Virus record (IMG/VR): IMGVR_UViG_2579779049_000042
From: a virus
Lineage: Duplodnaviria; Heunggongvirae; Uroviricota; Caudoviricetes
Length of the DNA stretch: 4,968 bases
Reading direction: 5' to 3' (one strand)
Part shown: positions 1 through 912 of the stretch, piece after piece
Layout of the letters: each line of letters begins with the position of its first letter
Numbering within the stretch: position 1 is the stretch's first letter
Notes under the pieces: model-generated
Databases searched by the model: none
Told to the model about the DNA's origin: nothing
What the model saw: only the letters and a program-made list of their open reading frames with translations
Translations under genes and position numbers: made by a program

Positions 1-288
1 TCACTGGCCTATACGGAGCGACTAAAAGAAGCCGGATTACTGGCATCAACAGGGAGTACAGGCGACTCGTATGACAACGCGATGGCTGAGAGCATCAATG
101 GTCTTTACAAAGCGGAGGTAATACACCGTAAGAGCTGGAAAAACCGTGCAGAAGTGGAACTGGCCACACTAACGTGGGTGGACTGGTATAACAATCGACG
201 ATTGCTGGGAAGGCTGGGCCATACTCCTCCGGCAGAAGCAGAAAAAGCTTATTATGCTTCCATCGGAAACGATGATCTGGCAGCCTGA
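1..288 (+). CDS. IS3-family transposase OrfB (DDE integrase domain), C-terminal fragment, 5'-partial
   Basis: Translation from base 1: SLAYTERLKEAGLLASTGSTGDSYDNAMAESINGLYKAEVIHRKSWKNRAEVELATLTWVDWYNNRRLLGRLGHTPPAEAEKAYYASIGNDDLAA. No stop before 286-288. The track ORF at 82-288 is only the internal Met of this longer frame. Confidence 0.9.
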   Translation, partial: SLAYTERLKEAGLLASTGSTGDSYDNAMAESINGLYKAEVIHRKSWKNRAEVELATLTWVDWYNNRRLLGRLGHTPPAEAEKAYYASIGNDDLAA

Positions 289-330
289 GTTCACAGATAA
301 AACACTCTCCAGGAAACCCGGGGCGGTTCA
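289..330 (+). repeat. Right terminal inverted repeat of the IS element (exact inner boundary uncertain)
   Basis: Lies immediately after the transposase stop and ends with GGTTCA at 325-330. Flanking sequence from 331 is ninG coding sequence. Confidence 0.6.
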
Positions 331-912
331 GTTTCGCAATTTTTTAAGTTTCTGTTGATACTCCGCCTTGATGGCCCTGCACTCTTCGACAGTCCAGCGA
401 TAGCGGTTATGGTTTGATTCGATTTCCTCTACTGCTTCCTGCCCGATGCGGCTAATCAGTTCGACGCGATACGGAACGAGATTTCCGCTTTTGTGCTGGT
501 TGCACACCACGCATTGCTTGTGAATATTGCGTTCATCAAATCGGAGTTGAGGTGCCGCAGCAGTTGTCCGGTAATGTCCGGCATCCCACTGAGCAGACGT
601 GAGCGTTCCGCACGAGATACATGGTAAGTCGCGGTCTCTTTCTCTGATGAAGGCGTTTACGGCTTGTTGGGCTTGTTTAATCCAGTAACTGCGGGGCTTT
701 AAGGCGAGTTTTCGAATCTTCAGTTTATCTTTCTGTTTCTGCTCCTCTCGTCGTAGTTTCTTCTCTGCTGCTTTTTCCGCTTTTTCACGTTCTTTACTTC
801 GTCGTTCGAGTGCTATCTTGGTTCCACAAATCTCATTACACCAATATTGATTTTGATATTTTGGTATAAACCATTCATTGCAACATTTACATTTCCTTCG
901 ATAGATTCGCAT
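328..912 (-). CDS. ninG: NinG/Rap-family recombination protein (lambda NinG homologue): N-terminus rebuilt with a new start, native C-terminus displaced by the IS
   Basis: From ATG 912..910 the product is [52 protein letters not shown]...[29 protein letters not shown]...[28 protein letters not shown]..., which I recognise as lambda NinG (Cys-rich N-terminus, basic linker). SD AAAGGAG (minus strand, 924..918) lies 5 nt upstream of the ATG. The stop TGA is the reverse complement of 328-330, i.e. the last three bases of the IS. The track start at 972 is a TTG and less likely. Confidence 0.8.

Follow-up and report, generated by a model that had tools for sequence, protein, structure and literature searches.

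The end of IS1203 as the stop codon of ninG: a probable IS-associated deletion in a decayed lambdoid prophage of Escherichia coli O111:H- 95JB1

Introduction

In a tailed-phage record of IMG/VR (IMGVR_UViG_2579779049_000042), of which a stretch of 4,968 nucleotides was analysed here (the window), the reading frame of ninG stops exactly where an insertion sequence (IS) begins. This raises the question of whether the IS simply inserted into ninG and separated it from the genes that follow in the phage operon, as an earlier note made from the sequence alone had proposed, or whether another rearrangement brought the two together. The window has 100% identity to the chromosomal sequence of E. coli O111:H- 95JB1 (NZ_CP021335.1), an isolate of the 1995 Adelaide HUS outbreak (PMC6602927), and it was compared here with related O111 genomes.

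The right end of IS1203 provides the stop codon of ninG

The window begins within an element of the IS1203/IS629 type (IS3 family), whose right-hand 330 bp (IS positions 981-1310) occupy positions 1-330 on the plus strand. This part contains the C-terminal 95 codons of the transposase (OrfAB/OrfB; 1-288, plus strand), which match the Pfam domains rve_3 (2.2e-12) and rve_2 (6.6e-07) and end, according to the list of open reading frames, with a TGA at 286-288. It also contains the right terminal inverted repeat (IRR; 306-330, plus strand), which ends in GGTTCA and shares 22 of 25 positions with the left repeat, as judged by eye from 8021-8045 of the 95JB1 locus (L001) and the reverse complement of 9306-9330. 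In the 95JB1 record, the full IS is 1,310 bp long (L001 8021-9330) with the termini 5'-TG...CA-3', its left end reading TGAACCGCCCCGG... and its right end ...CCGGGGCGGTTCA, and it is 100% identical to other O111 copies of IS1203. It is labelled in RefSeq as 'IS3-like element IS1203 family transposase', with a two-piece coding sequence and a 'programmed frameshift' note; an AL1L pseudoknot feature is annotated in it, and the frameshift site, which lies outside the window, is known from the annotation. A length of approximately 1.3 kb, TG...CA ends, imperfect repeats, two frameshift-joined open reading frames and an rve domain all agree with the IS629/IS1203 type (IS51 group) of the IS3 family.

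The earlier note had also suggested locating the other IS end and a target-site duplication in the full contig. The left end was found at L001 8021, but the 3-4 bp duplication expected for this family is missing from the 95JB1 copy, which has AAT on its left and GTTT on its right. Duplications at other copies of the IS are CAT, CTT, and GTTT, and the copy in O111:H8 strain 8B has AAT on both sides. The missing duplication in 95JB1 marks a deletion and is no argument against membership of the IS629/IS1203 type.

The junction reads ...CCCGGGGCGGTTCA|GTTTCGCAATTTTTTAAG..., with the break between positions 330 and 331, where the IS end is fused to codon 194 of ninG. The boundary can be fixed at position 330 because the IS is exactly 1,310 bp long with TG...CA ends and because the same IS end abuts five other flanks in the loci compared (L002-L006). 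On the minus strand, an open reading frame extends over 328-972 with its real ATG at 912, and the last three bases of the IS (TCA, 328-330) form, on this strand, the TGA that follows in frame right after ...KLKKLRN. An identical ninG coding sequence is called by RefSeq/PGAP (L001 9328-9912, equal to window 328-912; WP_021351585.1). In addition, the Illumina draft contigs AWFJ01000057.1 (95JB1) and AVDU01000062.1, the latter representing the outbreak sister strain 95NR1, read across the same junction, implying that it is not an artefact of the PacBio assembly. That the IS ends at 330 and supplies the ninG stop, as the earlier note had read from the letters, is therefore confirmed by the sequence, the RefSeq coding sequence, the IS length and the five other flanks; an IS boundary elsewhere, with a TGA native to ninG, was considered and does not agree with these data.

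The shortened ninG (rap) gene (328-912, minus strand) encodes 194 residues, compared with 200 in the native allele of strain 8B (L002). The 8B gene is identical up to the joint and then continues with AGC AGA AGT GAG GTT GCA TGA, giving a protein that ends in ...LRNSRSEVA; the start codon (ATG) of the following gene overlaps this TGA. Alignment of the NinG C-termini shows that six residues (SRSEVA) have been lost, consistent with the earlier suggestion that the native C-terminus had been displaced. No homologue among the best 120 ends at the LRN position, clearly partial sequences aside.

Since TGA reads inward from both IS ends, any gene running into the IS would be stopped at once in one frame of three, and the in-frame stop observed here is no more than chance gives. 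In Br_190_kylling, where ninG enters a related IS in another frame, the open reading frame continues for 13 codons into the element.

Comparison with strain 8B and other O111 genomes

On the far side of the IS in 95JB1 is a 3' fragment of a hypothetical gene that is normally located downstream of Q, and beyond it come DUF3927, holin, lysozyme, and Rz-type lysis genes. The same remnant with the same IS copy occupies yfaA/DUF1175 in strain 8B as well, and the left IS junction, ...CTCAATAAT|TGAACC, is identical in the two strains. However, the right IS end in 8B abuts AATTGCCGG..., and the IS is a simple insertion in the hypothetical gene with a 3-bp AAT duplication; the corresponding empty site with a single AAT is present in O111:H8 7-27 20A. 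Beyond the right IS end, 8B possesses the 5' part of the hypothetical gene, Q (PF03589, 1.2e-57), a calcineurin-like phosphatase gene (Metallophos, PF00149, 4.5e-17) at the position of NinI, and full-length ninG. A stretch of exactly 1,894 bp, contiguous in 8B (L002 4107-6000), is absent from 95JB1 at the new joint (330-331). It comprises the final six codons and the stop of ninG, the gene for the NinI-like phosphatase, Q together with the intergenic region next to it, and the 5' part of the hypothetical gene. Neither Q nor a phosphatase gene is annotated anywhere in the 95JB1 remnant.

Apart from this deletion, 95JB1 and 8B differ over 10.8 kb by a single SNP, located inside the IS in the left 4.1 kb, and a single hexanucleotide (6-bp) repeat unit in the right 6.7 kb, which shows that the deletion is recent. 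In most O111 genomes, including 11128, the segment is present without the IS. The three states, i.e., no IS in most O111 genomes, IS in the hypothetical gene in 8B, and IS plus deletion in 95JB1/95NR1, indicate the order of events.

An intact IS, one old junction shared with a simple insertion, one new junction, and no duplication were all found in 95JB1, as is characteristic of IS-adjacent deletions. Based on these comparisons, we consider it highly probable (approximately 0.9) that the locus represents an IS1203-associated 1.9-kb deletion in a decayed lambdoid prophage and not a simple insertion. The earlier view that the IS had split the ninG tail, ninI and Q from ninG is refuted for this genome by the loss of 1,894 bp, the unequal flanks (AAT vs GTTT) and the hypothetical-gene fragment beyond the IS; ninH, which had been listed among the displaced genes, does not occur in this prophage type at all.

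The junction was searched by megablast against 5,426 complete E. coli genomes and 50,697 phage records and by an exact-pattern scan of IMG/VR. Only 95JB1, O157 strain 1130, and one case with a 9-bp offset were matched. The deletion junction itself is unique to 95JB1 among the 5,426 complete E. coli genomes and recurs in the drafts of 95JB1 and 95NR1, and thus could serve as a marker of the 95JB1/95NR1 lineage.

The 3' end of ninG as a repeated target of IS629-family elements

In the Stx2c prophage of O157:H7 strain 1130, an IS629 isoform that differs from the 95JB1 copy at 57 of 1,310 positions interrupts ninG at exactly the nucleotide where the IS of 95JB1 joins it; this isoform is oriented alike and flanked by a GTTT duplication. 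A third isoform (49 differences) is found 9 bp further on in Br_190_kylling, again in the same orientation and with a CTT duplication. Comparison of the junctions (L003 3021-4330, L004 3018-4327, and window 330/331) places these IS629-family isoforms no more than 9 bp apart in the last ~25 bp of ninG, the transposase gene being opposed to ninG in each case. Altogether, three isoforms, differing from the 95JB1 copy at 0, 49, and 57 positions, have used this site independently in three prophages and serotypes, two of them at the identical phosphodiester bond. Strain 1130 and 95JB1 share the right junction, the orientation and the IS-derived TGA in NinG, whereas strain 1130 has a true insertion in which the GTTT duplication, the ninG tail, the phosphatase gene and Q are all kept, and its ninG allele is only 96% identical. 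To the right of the 95JB1 joint, ninG is the resident O111 allele, with a SNP, 8 bp away, at which strain 1130 differs; the events in the two strains are therefore independent.

A target resembling the IS ends is known for IS911. When either inverted repeat of the present IS was aligned to the sequence flanking the site (60 bp per side), the best local match was no better than for shuffled sequences. On balance, the chances appear about even that the last ~25 bp of lambdoid ninG constitute an orientation-specific hot spot for IS629-family transposition. If so, this would qualify a published statement on IS629 target sites, as no sequence-based target specificity was apparent in an IS629 survey (PMC3271280). 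Such recurrent use of the 3' end of ninG by three IS629 isoforms, always in one orientation, is the one point that extends somewhat past what has been published, and it is the sole aspect of this locus that might be worth a small experiment.

Possible routes of the deletion

The succession of states emerges from sequence comparison, whereas for the last step we infer the route. The starting arrangement, still present in most O111 strains, is an IS-free series of ninG, the ninI-like phosphatase gene, Q, the hypothetical gene, and the lysis cassette. In a lineage shared with O111:H8 8B, IS1203 then entered the hypothetical gene, duplicating AAT; in the 95JB1/95NR1 lineage, 1,894 bp were subsequently lost on the right-hand side of the IS, up to a point 21 bp from the end of the native ninG open reading frame, leaving the IS and its left junction intact. 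In principle, the order might be reversed, with the IS first inserted in ninG and a leftward deletion afterwards, but the left junction common to 95JB1 and 8B would then have to be a coincidence.

With the IS in the hypothetical gene as the starting point, the most likely route is that a second IS1203 transposed locally into the 3' end of ninG in the same orientation and that the two direct copies then recombined, whereby one copy and the interval would have been deleted. The two-copy intermediate would carry the junctions AAT|IRL, IRR|AATTGCC, IRR|GTTTCGCA, and CTGCTGTTT|IRL. A one-step intramolecular adjacent deletion to the same site, mediated by the transposase, would lead to an identical product. 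Two-copy recombination or one-step intramolecular transposition, whose products are indistinguishable, is most likely to explain the deletion. No two-IS intermediate was found in the 5,426 complete E. coli genomes. A chimeric IS, which would be a signature of recombination between two IS copies, was also sought; the 95JB1 copy differs from that of 8B by one SNP only, at position 830, where the other O111 copies have the 95JB1 base, and this is most simply explained by a private change in 8B and provides no hint of a chimeric element. IS3-family elements have been reported to delete adjacent DNA while staying intact (PMC8860574), and many of the inactivated genes and genomic deletions of EHEC have been attributed to IS629 (PMC9943667).

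A different origin of the endpoint might be envisaged if the transposase had cut at the right IS end and the break had been repaired by microhomology-mediated end joining dependent on the IS-excision enhancer (IEE), with the position in ninG set by resection. IEE does occur in O111:H8 genomes. However, the IS end is kept to the last base, no microhomology is visible at the joint (...GGTTCA|AATTGC vs ...CTGCT|GTTTCG), and the typical outcome of IEE events is loss of the IS itself (PMC8860574). Moreover, in another strain a real transposition event has hit the very nucleotide of this endpoint; such agreement would not be expected from resection and points to target choice by the transposase over resection and end joining. 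We thus regard the IEE route as improbable.

Direct transposition of IS629/IS1203 into the 3' end of ninG, with the ninG tail, ninI and Q intact beyond the IS, has a clear precedent, since precisely this is seen in strain 1130, where the tail, the phosphatase gene and Q follow the IS inserted at the same nucleotide with its GTTT duplication. For 95JB1 it is nevertheless very improbable, because what lies beyond the IS is the 3' fragment of the hypothetical gene, the two flanks differ (AAT vs GTTT), and no Q or phosphatase gene is annotated in the remnant. Finally, it is hardly credible that IS copies in the hypothetical gene and in ninG were collapsed and the interval lost only in assembly: IS copies are named in PMC6602927 as the chief reason why assemblies of these genomes break, but 1.3 kb is well within the length of PacBio reads, two independent Illumina drafts contain the right junction, and even with two copies this junction would be real and the stop IS-derived. 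The IS-associated deletion hence remains our preferred reading of the locus.

The truncated NinG protein

The shortened protein matches the NinG profile PF05766 over positions 5-192 of 193 (E = 2e-83; 279 bits, cut-off 25.4). In an alignment of 39 NinG sequences (A1) with 50 invariant columns, it is identical at all 50, and the Cys/His/Asn motif CxxC ... DxGH ... CxxCN is kept. Thus, it shares with lambda NinG (Rap), a structure-specific recombination endonuclease, both the PF05766 match and every invariant Cys, His, and Asn. The last invariant column of A1 is the Leu of ...KKL-RN, two residues ahead of the new stop, and past this column the natural NinG tails are 2-8 residues long with no conserved position. 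Compared with its own allele, the 95JB1 protein is missing the final six residues, and it ends two residues before the shortest natural tail observed, that of Providencia (...KELKDAG). While the earlier note left the activity of the truncated protein open, loss of function through the truncation would not be expected from this conservation pattern. A sequence search found no solved NinG structure, and in an AlphaFold2 model of the full-length protein (mean pLDDT 64.8) the C-terminal half scored 35-65, too low to judge the tail.

An exact-protein look-up of the 194-residue NinG returned 11 contigs. Three of the five places among the matches listed (L009-L011) were tried as further carriers of the truncated allele and rejected, as these contigs end two bases past codon 194 in native sequence (...GAAACAG) and contain no IS junction. 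Partial genes at contig ends are therefore a trap when the truncated allele is counted by protein identity. Annotation pipelines will call a truncated gene intact when an IS end happens to supply the stop.

State of the prophage and consequences of the deletion

The remnant at yfaA/DUF1175 is approximately 13.6 kb long in 95JB1 and 8B, with nleA and nleG at its far end, and in both strains int/xis directly adjoin the ninE region. The annotated maps of 95JB1 and 8B contain no N, cI, cro, O, P, or morphogenesis genes in the remnant. The earlier note considered the prophage likely to be defective, which is correct, although the reason given for it (the IS) is not: the remnant already lacks replication, immunity and morphogenesis genes independently of the IS. 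Judging from these gene contents, the element was an immobile remnant before the deletion, and its status was not changed by the IS event.

As for lysis, it had been suggested that the lysis genes were cut off from the antiterminator. The remaining lysis cassette is indeed without its activator, but this is because Q itself has been deleted and not merely separated. By analogy with the lambda gene order, the deleted Q-proximal region would probably contain the late promoter. Scans for promoters and terminators, run around ninG and across the Q-proximal region of 8B, detected nothing above shuffle expectation. The HNH endonuclease gene (HNH_3, weak AP2; 887-1453, minus strand), which directly precedes ninG and shares 26 nt with its start, is unaffected.

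Several other features of the window were observed. A hexanucleotide repeat, (AAATAG)n, is located at 1648-1694 in the gap upstream of the HNH gene, with six full copies in 95JB1/95NR1, five in O111:H8 8B, and eight in 7-27 20A, and represents the sole difference between 95JB1 and 8B across the right 6.7 kb. Two AT-rich open reading frames on the plus strand (1983-2915 and 2954-3781; ~30-39% GC in 300-bp windows) have no Pfam match and are the halves of one gene of ~590-611 residues, both being spanned by PHROG 9230 (590 positions). Intact versions of 611 and 590 residues are present in the E. coli drafts L009 and L010, implying that the gene is split in 95JB1 and 8B. It runs against the nin genes in a moron-like manner. 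Further to the right, ninE and an open reading frame of PHROG 1229 adjoin xis/int (window 4285-4968; L001 13285-15340), and the whole early region from N to P is missing.

Relation to known deletions and other IS1203 events

Deletions associated with IS629/IS1203 are known from EHEC prophages, such as the 'small-size structural polymorphisms' of the O157 Sakai type and IS3 adjacent deletions, and these involve the same IS type in the same setting, lambdoid prophage remnants of EHEC. The known deletions and the 95JB1 event are alike in that the IS is intact, one flank is deleted and no duplication is present, and there is no difference in kind. The 1,894-bp event is not mentioned in those passages of the 95JB1 genome paper (PMC6602927) that matched our search terms; the IS analysis described there compares only the two outbreak isolates, which share the deletion. 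All elements of the locus (IS1203/IS629, NinG/Rap, and an IS-associated deletion) are of known kinds, the genome is published and its features are annotated, and the event is ordinary prophage decay. It matters little beyond being one more step of IS-driven erosion in a cryptic, effector-carrying prophage of an outbreak EHEC O111 clone. A practical lesson is that a missing target duplication should be checked for before an IS junction is named an insertion.

Two additional IS1203 copies were noted. In O111:H8 7-27 20A, a different copy (L006 1391-2700) is located between nleG and the hypothetical gene, with the flanks CTGTT and ATTGA and no duplication, and the remnant has lost its lysis cassette and Rha gene; this copy marks a second, independent IS-associated deletion in the same remnant. 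In a different prophage of E. coli 27_141091, IS1203 (L005 4952-6261; CAT duplication) splits the 5' end of ninG from the HNH endonuclease gene, and PGAP still calls a 188-residue 'NinG' from an internal start.
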